Positions 4,671-53,998 of a DNA stretch of 64,000 nucleotides are shown in pieces. The stretch is taken from positions 26,966-90,965 of the forward strand of contig SICV01000002.1 in NCBI GenBank assembly GCA_009694725.1, given 5' to 3'. Numbering within the stretch: position 1 is the stretch's first letter; each line of letters starts with the position of its first letter. A model generated the notes under the pieces. That model made no database searches. It was given only the letters and a program-made list of their open reading frames with translations, and was not told the DNA's origin. Position numbers and translations under genes: made by a program. The stretch comes from Candidatus Pacearchaeota archaeon. GTDB taxonomy: Archaea; Nanobdellota; Nanobdellia; Pacearchaeales; GW2011-AR1.

Positions 4671-4712
4671 CTTTGTTTGTGTATTGTAGGTTTGATTCTT
4701 TCGCTGTTATGT

Positions 4713-4918
4713 CAAGGAACTTGATAGAAAACCACACTCTTTAGAGTGTGGTGGTTCCTTGAGCACAAGAGAATTTTTATCTGAAATTCTCTGTGCAGCA
4801 AATCGATAGATTTGCATGCATCCAAAACACGAGTGCCTGTTTCAAACCATGTCCTAAAGGACATGGTGGCACATCGTGTTTATGATCTTGTGTATGTTTT
4901 GATGAGTGGTTTAGGGAG
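4713..4918. ncRNA. candidate structured RNA / repeat element 'A' (paralog of 25491..25700)
   Basis: Four hairpins plus conserved blocks GAGCACA, GCATCCAAAACACGAGTGCC and GGTGGCACATCGT shared with element B. Stems differ by compensatory changes. Strand is unresolved. Confidence 0.4.
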
Positions 4919-25399: not shown

Positions 25400-25490
25400 G
25401 AGAAAGGGTGGTTTGAGGGTGTTTTAAAGATTGTTATGTCTCGAACGTTTAAAACTTGCCTCATCAAGAATTTTAATTCTTGACCGCTAT

Positions 25491-25700
25491 CAAGGACCTG
25501 TGTCCTTTAGGTTTAAGGCAATGACGTTTGTGAGCACAGAGAATCTACCGATTCTCTGGTCAGGAAACTAACTGATAGTTTCCTGCATCCAAAGAACGAG
25601 TGCTTGTTCAAATCACGTACTTCAGTGCGTGGTGGCACATCGTTTTTCTGATGTGCCCTCTTGAACATTCGCTTGTGAATTTTTATATGAGGGGCTTATA
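25491..25700. ncRNA. candidate structured RNA / repeat element 'B' (paralog of 4713..4918)
   Basis: Shares GAGCACAGAGAAT..ATTCTCTG, GCATCCAAAGAACGAGTGC and GGTGGCACATCGT with element A. TATA-like boxes occur on both flanks (CGTTTAAAAC on +, CATATAAAAAT on -). Confidence 0.4.
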
Positions 25701-29049: not shown

Positions 29050-29064
29050 AAATAGCCCTGCCCG
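29050..29064. repeat. 15-bp duplicate of the tRNA-Gln 3' end (AAATAGCCCTGCCCG)
   Basis: Identical to 29121..29135, which is the last 12 nt of the tRNA plus 3 nt of trailer. The two copies are separated by a 56-nt hairpin-containing spacer. Confidence 0.7.
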
Positions 29065-29123
29065 TTGAAAAAACTTTGTAGTTTTTAGTACGGTCAGTGC
29101 TTCCCTATCTTCGATAGGAAAAA

Positions 29124-29196
29124 TAGCCCTGCCCGGATTCGAACCGGGGTCACCGGCGCCAAAGGCCAGTATACTTGACCACTATACGACAGGGCT
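29124..29196 (-). tRNA. tRNA-Gln (anticodon TTG)
   Basis: Hand-folded. Acceptor AGCCCTG/CAGGGCT, anticodon arm CTGGC-CTTTGGC-GCCGG, T arm CCCGG-TTCGAAT-CCGGG. Confidence 0.85.
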
Positions 29197-37145: not shown

Positions 37146-37269
37146 AGCCTCCAGGGGGAATCGAACCCCCGACCCTTAGTTTTTCTGCGTGTTCACCGTT
37201 TGGGTGAAGCGTGAGGGGTGAAACCCCTACGCTACAAAACTAATGCTCTGCCAACTGAGCTATGGAGGC
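37146..37269 (-). tRNA. tRNA-Thr (anticodon TGT) with 51-nt intron at 37/38
   Basis: Hand-folded. Acceptor GCCTCCA/TGGAGGC, D arm GCTC-AGTTGGCA-GAGC, anticodon stem TTAGT/ACTAA with loop TTTGTA[intron]A, T arm GGGGG-TTCGATT-CCCCC. Confidence 0.85.
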
Positions 37270-37286
37270 ATTCTAGAACCAAGGTT

Positions 37287-37395
37287 CTATAACTCCTTTC
37301 TCTCCTTTGAAAAGAAAAGGGGAACCAGGCCCTATAACTCCTTTCTCTCCTTTGAAAAGAAAAGGGGAACCAGGCCCTATAACTCCTTTCTCTCC
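37287..37395. repeat. 45-bp tandem repeat, 2.4 copies
   Basis: Unit CTATAACTCCTTTCTCTCCTTTGAAAAGAAAAGGGGAACCAGGCC at 37287, 37332 and 37377 (partial). The copies are perfect. Each unit carries GGAGTTATAG (minus sense), a TATA-like box facing tRNA-Thr. Confidence 0.9.
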
Positions 37396-37501
37396 AGATA
37401 TGGAAAGAATCTTGTCTGTATTGGGTGATTTTGAGCGTTCAAAAAGCTTTGTTTTTCTTCTAACGGTACGCTTAAATAGGGTTTTTTATATTGTTTTTTA
37501 C

Positions 37502-47158: not shown

Positions 47159-47242
47159 GCGGGGATGCCGGAGCGGTCTAACGGGCTTGGCTTAGGACCA
47201 AGTGGCTTAGTGCCTTCGGAGGTTCGAATCCTCCTCCCCGCA
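47159..47242 (+). tRNA. tRNA-Leu (anticodon TAG)
   Basis: Acceptor GCGGGGA/TCCCCGC, anticodon arm CTTGG-CTTAGGA-CCAAG, long variable arm, T arm GGAGG-TTCGAAT-CCTCC. Confidence 0.9.
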
Positions 47243-47358
47243 TATTCTTTTCAGAATAAGGGTGAGGAGATAGATTCTCACCTTACCAACTCTGTCGAGT
47301 TGTAAGCACTCATGAACTGATCGTTCCTGGTGGCATGCAAAACAAGATGTTTTGCAGC

Positions 47359-47380
47359 GTTCGAATCCTCCTCCCCGCAT
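47359..47380 (+). repeat. 22-bp duplicate of the tRNA-Leu 3' end (GTTCGAATCCTCCTCCCCGCAT)
   Basis: Identical to 47222..47243. It lacks the 5' T-stem strand, so it is not a tRNA. The spacer is 115 nt and contains hairpins. Confidence 0.8.
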
Positions 47381-47422: not shown

Positions 47423-47656
47423 ATGGAAACTAAAATTATTCGCGTTACAGATAAAGGGCAGATTTCTTTACCGGTGAGTATACGAGATTCTTTATCTATT
47501 AAGCAAGGAGACGAATTACTTATTACTGCTGGTACAGAAACGGTTGTATTGCGGAAAGTGCGTAAAGAAGATTTTTCTGATTTATTGAAGCATTCTGAAA
47601 AGGTTGCAAGGAAGTTGTGGGATAATACCGAGGATGACGTTTGGAATGAAGTATAA
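47423..47656 (+). CDS. mazE: AbrB/MazE-type antitoxin
   Basis: IIRVTDKGQISLPVSIRDSLSIKQGDELLI. The palindrome GTAAGGAAATTCTTAC lies between the TATA and the ATG. Confidence 0.8.
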   Translation: METKIIRVTDKGQISLPVSIRDSLSIKQGDELLITAGTETVVLRKVRKEDFSDLLKHSEKVARKLWDNTEDDVWNEV

Positions 47657-47981
47657 GCAAGGAGATATTCTCATCGTACCTTTCCCCTTTTCTGATTTGA
47701 GTAGTTTTAAACAACGACCTGTTTTGGTTCTCTCAAAGACGGAAGATAACGAAAAATCTGAAGATCTTATTACCTGCGGTATTACCTCTCGTTTAAAGGA
47801 ATCTTCATACGGTATTGTTATTGATTCTTTATCTTTATCTGAAGGTAGTATCCCCGGGCGTAGTAGGGTTAAAGTTGATAAATTGTTTACTCTTAGTAAG
47901 GATATCGTTATTAAAAAAGTTGCACGAGTTAATCAAGCAACTTTTGCCTTAGTGAAAACGGCATTCACGCAATTGGTATAA
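47646..47981 (+). CDS. mazF: MazF/PemK-family toxin
   Basis: MKYKQGDILIVPFPFSDLSSFKQRPVLVLS. Overlaps mazE by 11 nt. Confidence 0.8.
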   Translation: MKYKQGDILIVPFPFSDLSSFKQRPVLVLSKTEDNEKSEDLITCGITSRLKESSYGIVIDSLSLSEGSIPGRSRVKVDKLFTLSKDIVIKKVARVNQATFALVKTAFTQLV

Positions 47982-47985
47982 TTCT

Positions 47986-48921
47986 TCATTTCTTACTGGC
48001 TTTTTCAGCAGACGCGAGGACTTTTGCTTTTAATTTGTCCTCGAGTTTGAGACGATCAATGAGCTCTTTGTATCTGTTTCTGATGGTGACTTCAGTGATG
48101 CCTGCGACATCTGCTACTTCACGTTGGGTCTTTTTTTCATCGTTGAGGAGGGCGGCTACGTAGAGGGCAGCTGCGGCGATGCCTGCTGGTCCGCGTCCTG
48201 AGGTGAGTTCGGAGATATCAGCACGTTTGAGGATTTTGAGAGCTTCATTCTGGGCTTTTGGTGAGAGATGGAGGATGGATGAAAATCGTGAGATATAGTC
48301 TTTGGGAGAGCTCGGTGTGACTTTTATTTTGAGCTTGCGTACGATGAAACGGTAGGTTCGTCCGATTTCTTTGCGCTCCACATCTGAGGCATTTGCAATT
48401 TCATCAAGGGTGCGAGGAATGTTGTAGGAACGACAGGCTGCGTAAATACAGGCTGCAATGACTGATTCCATACTTCTGCCACGGACGAGACCACGTTGGA
48501 GGACATAATTGTATACTCGTGAGGATTCATCCCGCACTACTGAAGGTAAGTTGAGGAAACTGGCGACACGGCGAAGTTCGGACATGGCTAATCGAAGGTT
48601 ACGTTCAATACTGGTGGAGACACGTTCTTGCCATTTTTTTAACCGAAGGAATTTTCGGGTTTGACCTGATTCAAGACGATAGATATCTGAAATTTCTCCG
48701 ACGTTCGTGGTCAGACCTTTGTCGAATTTCTGCATCGAGATGGGTGCTCCCCCTCGTCCTTTCTTTTCGTTTTTATCAAATGAACCCCCTGGATCGTGAC
48801 CTGTGTCGACCATTTTATCTTCTACAATTAATCCACAATCGTTACAGATAAGTTCGCCCCGATGATCGTCATACGTAAGCGACGTACTGTTACACTCGGG
48901 GCAGCGTTTTTGGTGACTCAT
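47986..48921 (-). CDS. tfb: transcription initiation factor TFB
   Basis: Zn ribbon CPECNS..CNDCG, two cyclin-fold repeats, C-terminal HTH VADVAGITEVTIRNRYKEL. Confidence 0.95.
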   Translation of the reverse strand: MSHQKRCPECNSTSLTYDDHRGELICNDCGLIVEDKMVDTGHDPGGSFDKNEKKGRGGAPISMQKFDKGLTTNVGEISDIYRLESGQTRKFLRLKKWQERVSTSIERNLRLAMSELRRVASFLNLPSVVRDESSRVYNYVLQRGLVRGRSMESVIAACIYAACRSYNIPRTLDEIANASDVERKEIGRTYRFIVRKLKIKVTPSSPKDYISRFSSILHLSPKAQNEALKILKRADISELTSGRGPAGIAAAALYVAALLNDEKKTQREVADVAGITEVTIRNRYKELIDRLKLEDKLKAKVLASAEKASKK

Positions 48922-51931: not shown

Positions 51932-52474
51932 ATGGGTGAAGTGAAAGTGACCTCTGAGTCGCTCCGCGCTGCAGAAATTAGTTTACAATTAGATATGTAT
52001 GATGATATCTTTTCTGATTTCGATCCTCGCCCTTTTTCACAACGAGCGCTCTCTGATGATTTTTTATTGGAAGCTCGGCGTGCAAGTAGGGATAAACCAA
52101 ACGGGGCCTTTGAAATACGTTTTATGATGCCCAAAGAAGATCGTAATCCTGCGGAAGAACAACTCATTAAACGTCGATTGAAAGATCATTTTCATAAACA
52201 TTATGTAGAAACGGTCGGGAAGACAACTGCCGTTACCCGAAAAGGATATACCTTAATTATTCTGGGTATTTTCGTTGCTTTGGGCGGAGGGTATATTGCG
52301 TTATATGAACATTCTTTTTTTGCGAAGGTTGCGATTATTGTATTAGAACCCGCGAGCTGGTTTTGTATTTGGAGTGGGTTTGATCATTTAGTCTTTAATG
52401 GGAAAGAATATGAAGAGGATCTTGTATTTTACGAGAAAATGCGTAACGCTGATATTTTATTTGAAGGATATTAA
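51932..52474 (+). CDS. hypothetical protein with two C-terminal TM helices
   Basis: 180-aa ORF. Confidence 0.55.
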   Translation: MGEVKVTSESLRAAEISLQLDMYDDIFSDFDPRPFSQRALSDDFLLEARRASRDKPNGAFEIRFMMPKEDRNPAEEQLIKRRLKDHFHKHYVETVGKTTAVTRKGYTLIILGIFVALGGGYIALYEHSFFAKVAIIVLEPASWFCIWSGFDHLVFNGKEYEEDLVFYEKMRNADILFEGY

Positions 52475-52917: not shown

Positions 52918-53008
52918 GCCCTCGTAGCTCAGCTTGGATAGAGCAGCGGACTTCTATTACCTCATAGGGGGAATCCGCAGGTCGCAGGTTCAAATCCTGT
53001 CGGGGGCG
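52918..53008 (+). tRNA. tRNA-Arg (anticodon TCT) with 16-nt intron at 37/38
   Basis: Acceptor GCCCTCG/CGGGGGC, D arm GCTC..GAGC, anticodon stem GCGGA/TCCGC with loop CTTCTA[TTACCTCATAGGGGGA]A, T arm GCAGG-TTCAAAT-CCTGT. TATA CGTTTATAGAG lies 25 nt upstream. Confidence 0.85.
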
Positions 53009-53071
53009 TGTAGGATTTGAACATCCAGAGAATGTTCTATTCTCTGTCCCTTCGGTTAGTAAACCTTCAGG

Positions 53072-53099
53072 AATCCTGTCGGGGGCGTGTAGGATTTGA
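53072..53099 (+). repeat. 28-bp duplicate of the tRNA-Arg(TCT) 3' end plus trailer
   Basis: AATCCTGTCGGGGGCGTGTAGGATTTGA is identical to 52993..53020. The 51-nt spacer contains the hairpin CAGAGAAT-GTTCT-ATTCTCTG. Confidence 0.85.
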
Positions 53100-53271
53100 T
53101 TACCCATTTTTTATAAAGTCTCTTTTTAGTATATCCTTATGAGGGTGCTTTCTCTTGCTTGATTATTTCTCGGGTGTTCTTTAGTTGGGGTGTGATGTTT
53201 TTCCTCTCCGTGTTTCTTCAGGCGTTGCTCCACGAGTGAGTGATGTTTCTATTGCACAGGAATGAGGACAT

Positions 53272-53532
53272 ATGGGAATTGCCCATGTCTGGTCTGATCC
53301 TGCAGGGTATGGTCGAGTAGGGAGTTATACGCTTGTTGATTGGAGTGATGATCATGTGATTGATGAAGTATGGAAAGGGACGGGTGCCTCACGTAAGGTT
53401 TTTGCGCCTTCTGCTCCTGAATTTAAGGAAGTTGCACCTTATTTTGAGAGTATTCTTGCTCGAGCACCTCGCGATCGGGAGTATTGGCCAGAAGATGCGC
53501 CTTCTCGCGGATATATGGAGTTTCTTGCTTGA
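53272..53532 (+). CDS. hypothetical protein
   Basis: 86-aa ORF preceded by AGGAATGAGGA. Confidence 0.45.
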   Translation: MGIAHVWSDPAGYGRVGSYTLVDWSDDHVIDEVWKGTGASRKVFAPSAPEFKEVAPYFESILARAPRDREYWPEDAPSRGYMEFLA

Positions 53533-53560
53533 CAAAACGTATTAAAATAGGCTTGCTTCT

Positions 53561-53998
53561 CTATTCTTCAGCGTAGTTCGTATGTTCTATTTTGTAGGTT
53601 CCCGTTATGAGATCAAGGTAGAGTGTAGTGAGACCATCATCCGTGCCCCAGTCTATATGTGTTGCTTTTTGAGGAAGCTTTTTTTTGAGTATTTTTCCAA
53701 GATAGCTTCTACTTTTTTTTGTTGCTTGATCAATGGTTTGATCTTGGAGTTTGGGATCATATGAACCTCCAGTTACGATTGCTTGTAGTTGTTTTCTTGT
53801 TCCGTATGTTTGGGCTGTGGTAAGCATTGCTTCAAGTGCTTCATGTTCGATCATAGGGGTATGGATGAGCCACCCTATTTTCAGGTGAGGGAAGTAAAGG
53901 CCAAGACCAATACAGTTTGCAAGACCTCGTGTCCAGAGCATGCACTCGTTTCCTTGGACCCACCCTTCACATTGTTCTACTTCTCGTTCTTTTCCCAT
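53561..53998 (-). CDS. hypothetical protein, weak CheD-like pattern
   Basis: TRGLANCIGLGLYFPHLKIGWLIHTP resembles the T.LGSCV..LyD...G..H segment of CheD. No chemotaxis genes are nearby. Confidence 0.4.
   Translation of the reverse strand: MGKEREVEQCEGWVQGNECMLWTRGLANCIGLGLYFPHLKIGWLIHTPMIEHEALEAMLTTAQTYGTRKQLQAIVTGGSYDPKLQDQTIDQATKKSRSYLGKILKKKLPQKATHIDWGTDDGLTTLYLDLITGTYKIEHTNYAEE

Follow-up and report, generated by a model that had tools for sequence, protein, structure and literature searches.

In a 64,000-nucleotide stretch of DNA from Candidatus Pacearchaeota archaeon (GenBank assembly GCA_009694725.1, contig SICV01000002.1, positions 26,966 to 90,965 of the forward strand; this whole stretch is termed the window), a tRNA-Arg(TCT) gene is followed at a short distance by a perfect 28-nt copy of its own 3' end. 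The arrangement had been pointed out in a sequence-only reading of the same DNA, and it was analyzed in-silico within the window and across related Pacearchaeota contigs. The features of the Arg locus are as follows:

52918..53008, plus strand: tRNA-Arg(TCT) gene, detected by the Rfam tRNA model (56.7 bits) and by ARAGORN
52988..53022, plus strand: dyad GTTCAAATCCT - 13 nt - AGGATTTGAAC, with 11-nt arms that are 100% complementary
52993..53020, plus strand: copy 1 of the 28-nt repeat, an exact match with 0 expected by chance
53021..53071, plus strand: body of the insert, a 51-nt spacer containing the hairpin CAGAGAAT-GTTCT-ATTCTCTG at 53026-53046
53072..53099, plus strand: copy 2 of the 28-nt repeat, an exact match that is not a tRNA (ARAGORN negative)

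The 28-mer AATCCTGTCGGGGGCGTGTAGGATTTGA has exactly two exact occurrences, at the positions first reported, and 0 matches were obtained in 100 shuffles. Copy 1 is made up of three T-loop bases (AAT; the sequence-only reading had counted two), the T-stem 3' strand CCTGT, the acceptor 3' strand CGGGGGC, the discriminator G and a 12-nt trailer, the parts other than the T-loop bases being as originally described. The complementarity between trailer and T arm that had also been noticed proved to be an exact 11-nt inverted copy (GTTCAAATCCT / AGGATTTGAAC), the arms of the dyad flanking the acceptor 3' strand. The tRNA itself, whose predicted fold is a cloverleaf with an intron helix, contains a 16-nt intron (52957-52972) that equals a 16-nt gap against the intron-less orthologue of L032 (L-numbers are labels of compared contigs or loci). 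Copy 2 had been considered no tRNA, and ARAGORN indeed returned nothing for it at thresholds of 100, 85 and 70%; shuffled controls gave 31 hits in 210 at 70%. The locus, 263 nt in length, is identical across six independent MEGAHIT or NCBI assemblies, and the duplication is therefore real and not an assembly artefact. Short-read assemblies break at such repeats, as observed for three Logan contigs (L029-L031) that terminate at copy 1 of the Arg repeat and for a run of N in the tRNA-Ala array of L065 (L065:15549-15647) described below.

Both GlyRS and the contigs with shared sequence assign the window to DPANN archaea of Pacearchaeota/Nanoarchaeota type, and the intron of tRNA-Arg likewise marks the organism as archaeal. 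The closest relative found, L032 (GlyRS 91% identical), shares promoter and tRNA-Arg(TCT) with the window but has neither the intron nor a second copy, and its tRNA-Cys lies 55 nt 3' of tRNA-Arg(TCT), as against about 1.1 kb with two orphan open reading frames (ORFs) in the window. The tRNA-Arg(TCT) genes of the more distant relatives L033/L034, L066 and L068 are likewise without a copy, which identifies the Arg duplication as a lineage-specific insertion. Contigs carrying P0004, P0006, P0008, P0009 and P0013 stop short of the tRNA-Arg locus and fall outside this comparison. As for the neighbouring genes, the two orphan ORFs, which are 86 and 145 aa long and lack Pfam matches, are located at 53272-53998, in the ~1.1 kb between copy 2 and tRNA-Cys, and a further orphan ORF of 180 aa upstream of tRNA-Arg (51932-52474) is missing in L032.

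The same design had been claimed for tRNA-Leu and tRNA-Gln of the window, and both cases hold, with a 22-mer and a 15-mer as the respective repeats:

47159-47242, plus strand: tRNA-Leu(TAG) gene
47222..47380, plus strand: Leu repeat unit, a 22-nt repeat (47222-47243 and 47359-47380) around a 115-nt hairpin-rich insert
29124-29196, minus strand: tRNA-Gln(TTG) gene
29050..29135, minus strand: Gln repeat unit, the 15-nt repeat CGGGCAGGGCTATTT (29121-29135 and 29050-29064) around 56 nt

Within the Leu insert (fold z-score -5.7), GGTGAGGAG at 47261-47269 is complementary to both repeat copies. The 56-nt Gln insert (fold z-score -5.0) is parted from its tRNA by a T5 run and comprises two hairpins, A at 29101-29120 and B at 29069-29086, as well as an imperfect inverted repetition of the 3' strand at 29091-29101, its long hairpin spanning 22 nt with 77% complementarity. 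Taken together, the fold z-scores of the Gln and Leu inserts range from -3.6 to -5.7. The remaining four tRNAs of the window show no 3'-end copy, as had been stated.

Occurrence beyond the window was assessed by counting as a copy any direct-orientation match to the last 12 nt of a tRNA with at most 2 mismatches within 300 nt downstream. Additional tRNA loci were drawn from a metagenome scan with the 5' part of tRNA-Gln and from contigs reached via GlyRS homologues. Such downstream copies are present at 10 of the 68 distinct archaeal tRNA loci on this and related Pacearchaeota contigs, and five isoacceptor families (Arg, Leu, Gln, Glu and Ala) are affected, the controls at the same 68 loci yielding 0 upstream copies and 0 inverted downstream copies. 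Some loci had been retrieved as orthologues, which biases the sample in part; the Glu and Ala cases were incidental finds on contigs retrieved for other purposes. Several of the repeats are perfect (28/28, 22/22, 17/17 and 15/15). The small size of the inserted DNA, remarked upon for the 51 nt at Arg, extends to all ten loci, where the copies are spaced by 25-170 nt, and copies at kilobase distance were found neither at any sampled locus nor in the 64-kb window. The Arg duplication is an insertion, and insertions of this kind are recurrent, always tiny and specific to tRNA 3' ends in the sampled clade.

Both filled and empty sites could be identified among the relatives. The tRNA-Gln of L010 carries the same insert as that of the window, both hairpins being preserved via compensatory changes, and its downstream copy shares an A-to-G change of the acceptor strand; in tRNA-Gln of L055 the promoter and downstream gene are as in L010 and the 70-nt insert is absent. 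Since the three Gln lineages are mutually ~65% identical and thus equidistant, a single gain is indistinguishable from a gain plus a loss. Further filled sites are tRNA-Gln of L041/L049, tRNA-Glu of L042/L044 and of L038, and tRNA-Ala of L056, L065 and L068, and empty tRNA-Ala sites occur in L033, L057, L063, L064, L066 and L067. The comparison of orthologous loci suggested at the outset has thereby yielded empty sites for Arg, Gln and Ala, and these, along with the repeat itself, support the earlier likening of the direct repeat to the attL/attR pair of an integrated element (att, attachment site). In addition, at L063:2526-2600 and in L038 (tRNA-Gln CTG, +38) a hairpin with a GTACAAAAAC-type motif is found at a tRNA without recognisable second copy, which implies that an insert-like trailer can lack or outlive the duplication.

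An array was observed at tRNA-Ala of L065, where four 3'-end copies, counting the tRNA's own, are arranged with a period of 84 nt. The second copy comes after a 67-nt insert and has a run of N before it, so that further units are possible; the third, with two mismatches, comes after an identical 67-nt insert; and the fourth, of 13 nt, after a different insert of 65 nt. The most distal copy, TCGGCAGGTCCAT, reads GGCAGG like the tRNA-Ala 3' end of L033, L057 and L063, and the tRNA of L065 reads GGCGGG. The simplest reading of this array is that of successive events beside the tRNA, the older copies having been displaced downstream with retention of an earlier sequence state.

A hairpin opens every insert, 1-17 nt past the tRNA, and most inserts hold a stretch complementary to their own tRNA, either to its T arm or to its 3' strand. 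Exact 10-11-nt inverted T-arm copies lie directly 3' of the tRNA in the window Arg, Ala-L056 and Ala-L065 cases, and shuffle tests of the inverted copies gave p = 0.008-0.04 in 6 of 10 inserts and ~1e-4 combined for the first seven. The Gln and Glu-L042 inserts show the order target copy, inverted copy, target copy (22-nt stem, 77% paired). On its left side, the repeat begins within the T loop in Arg, Leu, Glu-L038, Ala-L056 and Ala-L065 and within the T-stem 3' strand in Gln and Glu-L042, while the right edge lies 0-12 nt beyond the discriminator; repeat lengths of 11, 13, 15, 15, 17-18, 18, 22 and 28 nt were recorded, left and right edges both differing. In the Williams 2002 classification, the T loop and the T-stem 3' strand are reportedly typical sublocations of integrase att sites in tRNA genes, and the repeats described here lie at such a sublocation.

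Short motifs are common to different inserts. Perfect hairpins with a stem of at least 8 bp number only about 20 in the 64 kb, and the Arg stem CAGAGAAT/ATTCTCTG recurs at 25537-25558, in hairpin 2 of a ~170-nt element; with so few such hairpins in the window, the chance of this match was estimated by us at ~1e-3. Likewise, CAACTCTGTCGAGT in the Leu insert of the window matches CAACTCTGACGAGT in the Ala insert of L056, and a loose motif, G[TC]AC.AA[AG]AA[CT], is located 31-38 nt 3' of five different tRNAs, with ~33 matches in 1.15 Mb (both strands).

With slightly less than even confidence, we tentatively read the two 28-nt copies as att-type repeats marking the junctions of miniature non-coding cassettes, with tRNA 3' ends as their sites of integration. 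A tiny non-autonomous element targeting tRNAs was one of three options raised in the sequence-only reading, and it is the best-fitting of the three in the light of the empty sites, the 10 of 68 loci, the array and the shared motifs. Accepting it, a 79-bp insertion would have entered the 3' end of tRNA-Arg(TCT), with the 28-nt copies as its junctions, and would represent a loose population of hairpin-rich, non-coding cassettes of ~40-140 bp that land directly behind Pacearchaeota-type tRNA genes, each having a copy of the target tRNA's 3' end as its distal boundary. The putative site would be a dyad formed by the T loop and T-stem 3' strand and by their inverted copy past the tRNA end, enclosing the acceptor 3' strand. 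The cassette would presumably come with a copied tRNA 3' end of its own and be moved by a site-specific recombinase acting in trans from a gene at another locus; the cassettes being so small and hairpin-rich, the intermediate may be single-stranded and folded. In arrays, new cassettes would enter beside the functional tRNA and shift the older copies downstream. A wider proposal, that of a new class of 40-140-nt non-coding mobile cassettes in DPANN archaea, kin of the ~170-nt family, which integrate as folded single strands through a hairpin att site mimicking the tRNA end and form arrays that record insertions and past tRNA variants, is speculative and unlikely.

A number of observations weigh against mobile cassettes. 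Double-stranded DNA of 40-140 bp, the size of the cassettes, is too short to form a circle, and with repeat lengths of 11-28 nt there is no fixed target-site duplication. Terminal inverted repeats are lacking at the insert ends, the inverted repeats found involving the tRNA sequence itself. Searches by nhmmer with each insert against 0.57 Mb, of which 64 kb came from the source genome, recovered nothing beyond the insert itself or its orthologue and gave no cross-hits, and inserts as idiosyncratic as these would need a separate cassette lineage per tRNA. The Gln insert is conserved at 82%, as against ~65% for its flanks (3' two thirds, manual count), which could indicate function rather than mobility. 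Finally, neither integrase nor transposase nor Cas1 was detected by Pfam in more than 35 window ORFs, and no virus or plasmid contig with the att sequence or the element was found in the scans made.

Regarding a possible enzyme or partner element, PolB and Cas1 (the casposon genes) are absent from the window ORFs scanned, and the lone Cas-type match is a sub-threshold one, a Cas3-like C-terminal match in a DEAD-box helicase with 21.6 bits against a cut-off of 27. In an exact-pattern scan of one virus collection, IMG/VR, the Arg att, the 3' end of tRNA-Arg and the core of the 170-nt element all went unmatched, and nothing relevant came from a protein-level search for a virus or plasmid partner that used the orphan ORF of 145 aa. 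A RadA gene is present in the window. Free-standing LAGLIDADG ORFs abut or overlap tRNAs (Arg, Ala, Cys and Met) at L065:3036-3770, L065:14486-15451, L068:5800-6474 and L057:6680-7459; both L065 ORFs and the L057 ORF were above the Pfam cut-off on rescan, and the L068 ORF is a precomputed LAGLIDADG_3 hit. Two of the LAGLIDADG ORFs precede tRNAs that have a downstream insert or a 170-nt element. Among the window ORFs scanned, no LAGLIDADG gene lies beside the three affected tRNAs.

Local duplication by replication or repair is a rival reading. DNA breakage or fork stalling where the tRNA gene ends would be followed by error-prone template-switching synthesis, in which nearby sequence is copied inverted and then direct, with snippets from elsewhere, and slippage would amplify the unit. 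The T arm as a natural palindrome and the inverted copies of the own T arm or 3' strand in the inserts are in keeping with such an origin, as are a copy that always fits the local tRNA down to its lineage-specific differences (the A-to-G change of the L010 Gln), two neighbouring units that are identical in L065, idiosyncratic inserts that form no repeat family, the LAGLIDADG ORFs adjoining tRNA-Arg, -Ala, -Cys and -Met in L065, L068 and L057, and a window that encodes RadA. We nonetheless consider it unlikely, for inserts at different tRNAs and in different genomes have in common short motifs of no evident tRNA origin, no simple microhomology path was found for the Arg junctions, the LAGLIDADG scan was negative at the three affected tRNAs of the window, and the inserts show no significant direct similarity to the tRNA 5' half. 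A function of the trailer itself, whether in processing, in termination or in regulation through competition with the T arm and acceptor stem, has support from the Gln insert, which is kept in two genomes whose flanks are only ~65% identical, with compensatory changes in its hairpins and a copy that tracks the acceptor change, and by the fold z-scores of -3.6 to -5.7 at Gln and Leu. At Arg, the earliest oligo-T run 3' of the tRNA is T6 at 53107-53112, beyond copy 2, and the insert is on that account probably co-transcribed; in the predicted RNA fold the trailer, when present, forms a 12-bp hairpin that displaces the T arm, and folding of the full precursor is predicted to pair the 5' acceptor strand with copy 2. 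Dicistrons of tRNA and small RNA (sRNA) cut by RNase Z are known in Nanoarchaeum (PMC3491384). Close relatives, however, lack the insert at the same loci, which makes the trailer dispensable; the Arg insert folds no better than shuffles (z = -0.87), the T5 run parts tRNA-Gln from its insert, no insert has a C box, Rfam at gathering scores matches only the tRNAs in the window, and arrays of identical units are hard to square with function. The competing trailer of the sequence-only reading has Gln conservation and the in-silico outcome at Arg in its favour and the relatives that do without it against it; overall, a functional trailer is quite improbable.

Scars of decayed elements, the first option of that reading, would derive from kilobase-sized viruses or plasmids with a tyrosine integrase, the interior having been deleted. 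Reduced genomes delete DNA quickly, insertion by an integrase at tRNA 3' ends yields exactly such a repeat, and variable or orphan genes occur just past copy 2 (two ORFs after Arg that are absent in L032, and MazEF after Leu). Archaea often carry partial copies of tRNAs (PMC9897764). Such scars are nevertheless disfavoured by how narrowly the sizes are distributed and by the perfection of the repeats, and are decidedly improbable: the copies are 25-170 nt apart in 10 of 10 cases with no kilobase interior, the repeats would still be perfect with more than 95% of the interior gone, the L065 array has identical 84-nt periods, and no integrase remnant was encountered in the window ORFs scanned. 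As a last alternative, an intron-like insertion in the T loop would let either copy complete the tRNA, with 79 nt removed at the RNA level. The predicted pairing of the 5' acceptor strand with copy 2 in the full precursor is compatible with this, the Arg repeat begins within the T loop, and the same tRNA-Arg has gained a canonical intron relative to L032; some types of archaeal endonuclease cut non-canonical introns (PMC5829648). Introns do not need a duplicated exon end, though, in Gln and Glu-L042 the repeat begins in the 3' strand of the T stem and reaches into the trailer, and the arrays do not fit, so that an intron-like origin is very improbable indeed.

If the inserts are regarded as miniature cassettes, comparison with known systems reveals partial likenesses. 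The attL/attR repeats left by integrases in tRNA genes (PMC9897764) similarly form a direct repeat over the tRNA 3' end from the T loop or T stem with the tRNA left intact, have empty sites in relatives, and can keep an older 3'-end variant in the displaced distal copy. They differ in enclosing kilobases, as against 27-115 nt here with no integrase or gene inside, and the inverted T-arm copy beside the tRNA and the arrays with an 84-nt period are peculiar to the present loci. Judged as an att-type system, the direct repeat at the tRNA 3' end and the empty site are present, and a recombinase or element genes between the repeats are absent. Casposons (PMC4779613) likewise target archaeal tRNA 3' ends, with a duplication of ~14-35 bp and tandem arrays split by the duplicated site; repeated insertion at tRNA-Leu with shared duplications, and solo terminal repeats, have been described for them (PMC4779613). 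By contrast, the duplication here varies from 11 to 28 nt in place of a constant length, its block lies mostly inside the tRNA instead of starting at its last bases, and neither terminal inverted repeats nor Cas1/PolB (window ORFs) are found. The tiny tRNA-3'-end duplications thus fit neither the integrase nor the casposon class, despite working alike.

Cis-mobilisable or decayed integrative elements (CIMEs) related to the integrative and conjugative elements (ICEs) of streptococci are non-autonomous, att-bounded DNA that is mobilised in trans and accretes in tandem at the 3' end of a tRNA or other gene; they are kilobases long and visibly derived from ICEs, whereas the present units are below 150 bp with no parent element known. 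The integron attC and the attP of CTX phage are sites of folded single-stranded DNA, an imperfect hairpin with one arm mimicking the chromosomal target, and the order of target copy, inverted copy and target copy in the Gln and Glu-L042 inserts resembles them. Unlike those sites, the inserts have no linked IntI/Xer-type enzyme, the target is a tRNA end and not attI or dif, and the single-strand step is only proposed here. Nanoarchaeum equitans possesses dicistronic tRNA-sRNA genes, and mobility of its small RNA genes via circular intermediates has been proposed (PMC3491384). These too are small structured non-coding sequences right behind a tRNA in a DPANN archaeon, but they have no trailing copy of the tRNA 3' end, and the inserts here have no C box.

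Several candidate identities for the inserts were tried and rejected. They do not form one repeat family, as the nhmmer all-against-all comparison was without cross-hits, nor are they miniature inverted-repeat transposable elements, many near-identical copies not being found in the 0.57 Mb searched (64 kb of it from the source genome). An origin of the second unit from a decayed full tRNA was discarded because similarity to the tRNA 5' half is not significant save for L010 (p = 0.029) and ARAGORN found nothing. C/D box sRNAs co-transcribed with the tRNA were dismissed, as the C box (RUGAUGA) is absent from all ten inserts (0 of 10), D-box-like CTGA being sporadic. Rfam 15 at gathering scores recovered only seven tRNAs in the window, the insert regions not having been searched in E-value mode. 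A clustered regularly interspaced short palindromic repeat (CRISPR) array does not apply either, with just two copies at Arg, Leu and Gln, two identical 'spacers' in L065 and no Rfam CRISPR repeat, and no snap-back microhomology path for the Arg junctions was constructible by hand.

The ~170-nt element that shares the Arg hairpin stem is represented twice in the window:

4709..4886, plus strand: copy of the ~170-nt element, with hairpin 2 matching the hairpin of the Arg spacer
25436..25652, plus strand: second copy, with extra sequence inside the first hairpin and the exact CAGAGAAT/ATTCTCTG stem at 25537-25558

The Arg hairpin had been said to appear in both of these intergenic elements; this is correct for the exact stem at 25537-25558, and the copy at 4768 holds a version with a 7-nt stem only (AGAGAAT/ATTCTCT). 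The family is non-coding with five hairpins, in the layout ATGTC, hairpins, GAGCAC, CTGCATCCAAA, GGTGGCACATCGTTTTTTTGAT, and has a left flank T(T/G)AT and a 3' terminus TTGAT; the first and last domains have almost identical inner hairpins. Its ends resemble those of palindrome-associated transposable elements (PATEs) of the IS200/IS605 type or guide-RNA scaffolds. Members were also found in L001, L004, L012, L013, L020, L002, L021, L010, L019 and L065:3920-3975, and the family is multi-copy in several Pacearchaeota metagenome-assembled genomes, JACPLS01 holding five copies with about 95% identity. Compensatory changes at 15 base pairs and fold z-scores of -6 to -9 were recorded, and against Rfam the best E-value was 0.009, far below the gathering score. 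Members stand directly behind tRNA-Ser (L012) and tRNA-Arg(TCT) (L065), and in L065 the 5' end of the element and the T loop of tRNA-Arg(TCT) make an imperfect inverted repeat. Shared with the tRNA spacers are only the 8-bp hairpin stem and, weakly, a similarity between an inverted T loop and the 5' end of the element. That the spacers are truncated 170-nt elements was rejected, the nhmmer profile of the element missing all spacers even at E = 100.

Further observations concern the surroundings of the affected tRNAs. Past copy 2 of tRNA-Leu by 43 nt lies a MazE/MazF toxin-antitoxin pair (47423-47981), and beyond it a TFIIB gene (47986-48921) that faces tRNA-Leu; in VGKT01 (L019) TFIIB is upstream of tRNA-Leu in the same orientation, and this difference points to an inversion or rearrangement with its breakpoint at tRNA-Leu. 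Right after Gln copy 2, the minus-strand segment 28895-29050 contains a second hairpin, TTCTCT-AAGG-AGAGAA, followed by AGCACTATGAACGTATCACTGGTG, which resembles AGCACTCATGAACTGATCGTTCCTGGTGG of the Leu insert (a match not significant by nhmmer); the segment may be a second, older insert with a decayed copy. Elsewhere in the window, a minus-strand tRNA with an intron of ~50 nt (37146-37269) is detected by Rfam and missed by ARAGORN, and upstream of it, before the divergent tRNA-Val, 2.5 tandem copies of a 45-nt unit occupy 37282-37416. Strand asymmetry along the window is strong and uniform, with a GC skew of +0.09 to +0.30 and an AT skew that is negative in 15 of 16 4-kb bins (mostly about -0.1 to -0.26), despite genes on both strands.

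Viruses and plasmids that integrate into a genome classically leave a duplicated tRNA 3' end as their footprint; here almost nothing is enclosed by this footprint, which recurs at about one in seven sampled tRNA loci. Partial tRNA copies of this kind break short-read assemblies and can mislead tRNA annotation. Were the repair origin true, tRNA 3' ends would be fragile or targeted sites in reduced genomes. If instead the cassettes do move, they would rank among the smallest site-specific mobile units known and would offer an entry point to the mobile elements and recombinases of DPANN archaea, and their arrays would constitute a small fossil record of the evolution of the tRNA acceptor stem.

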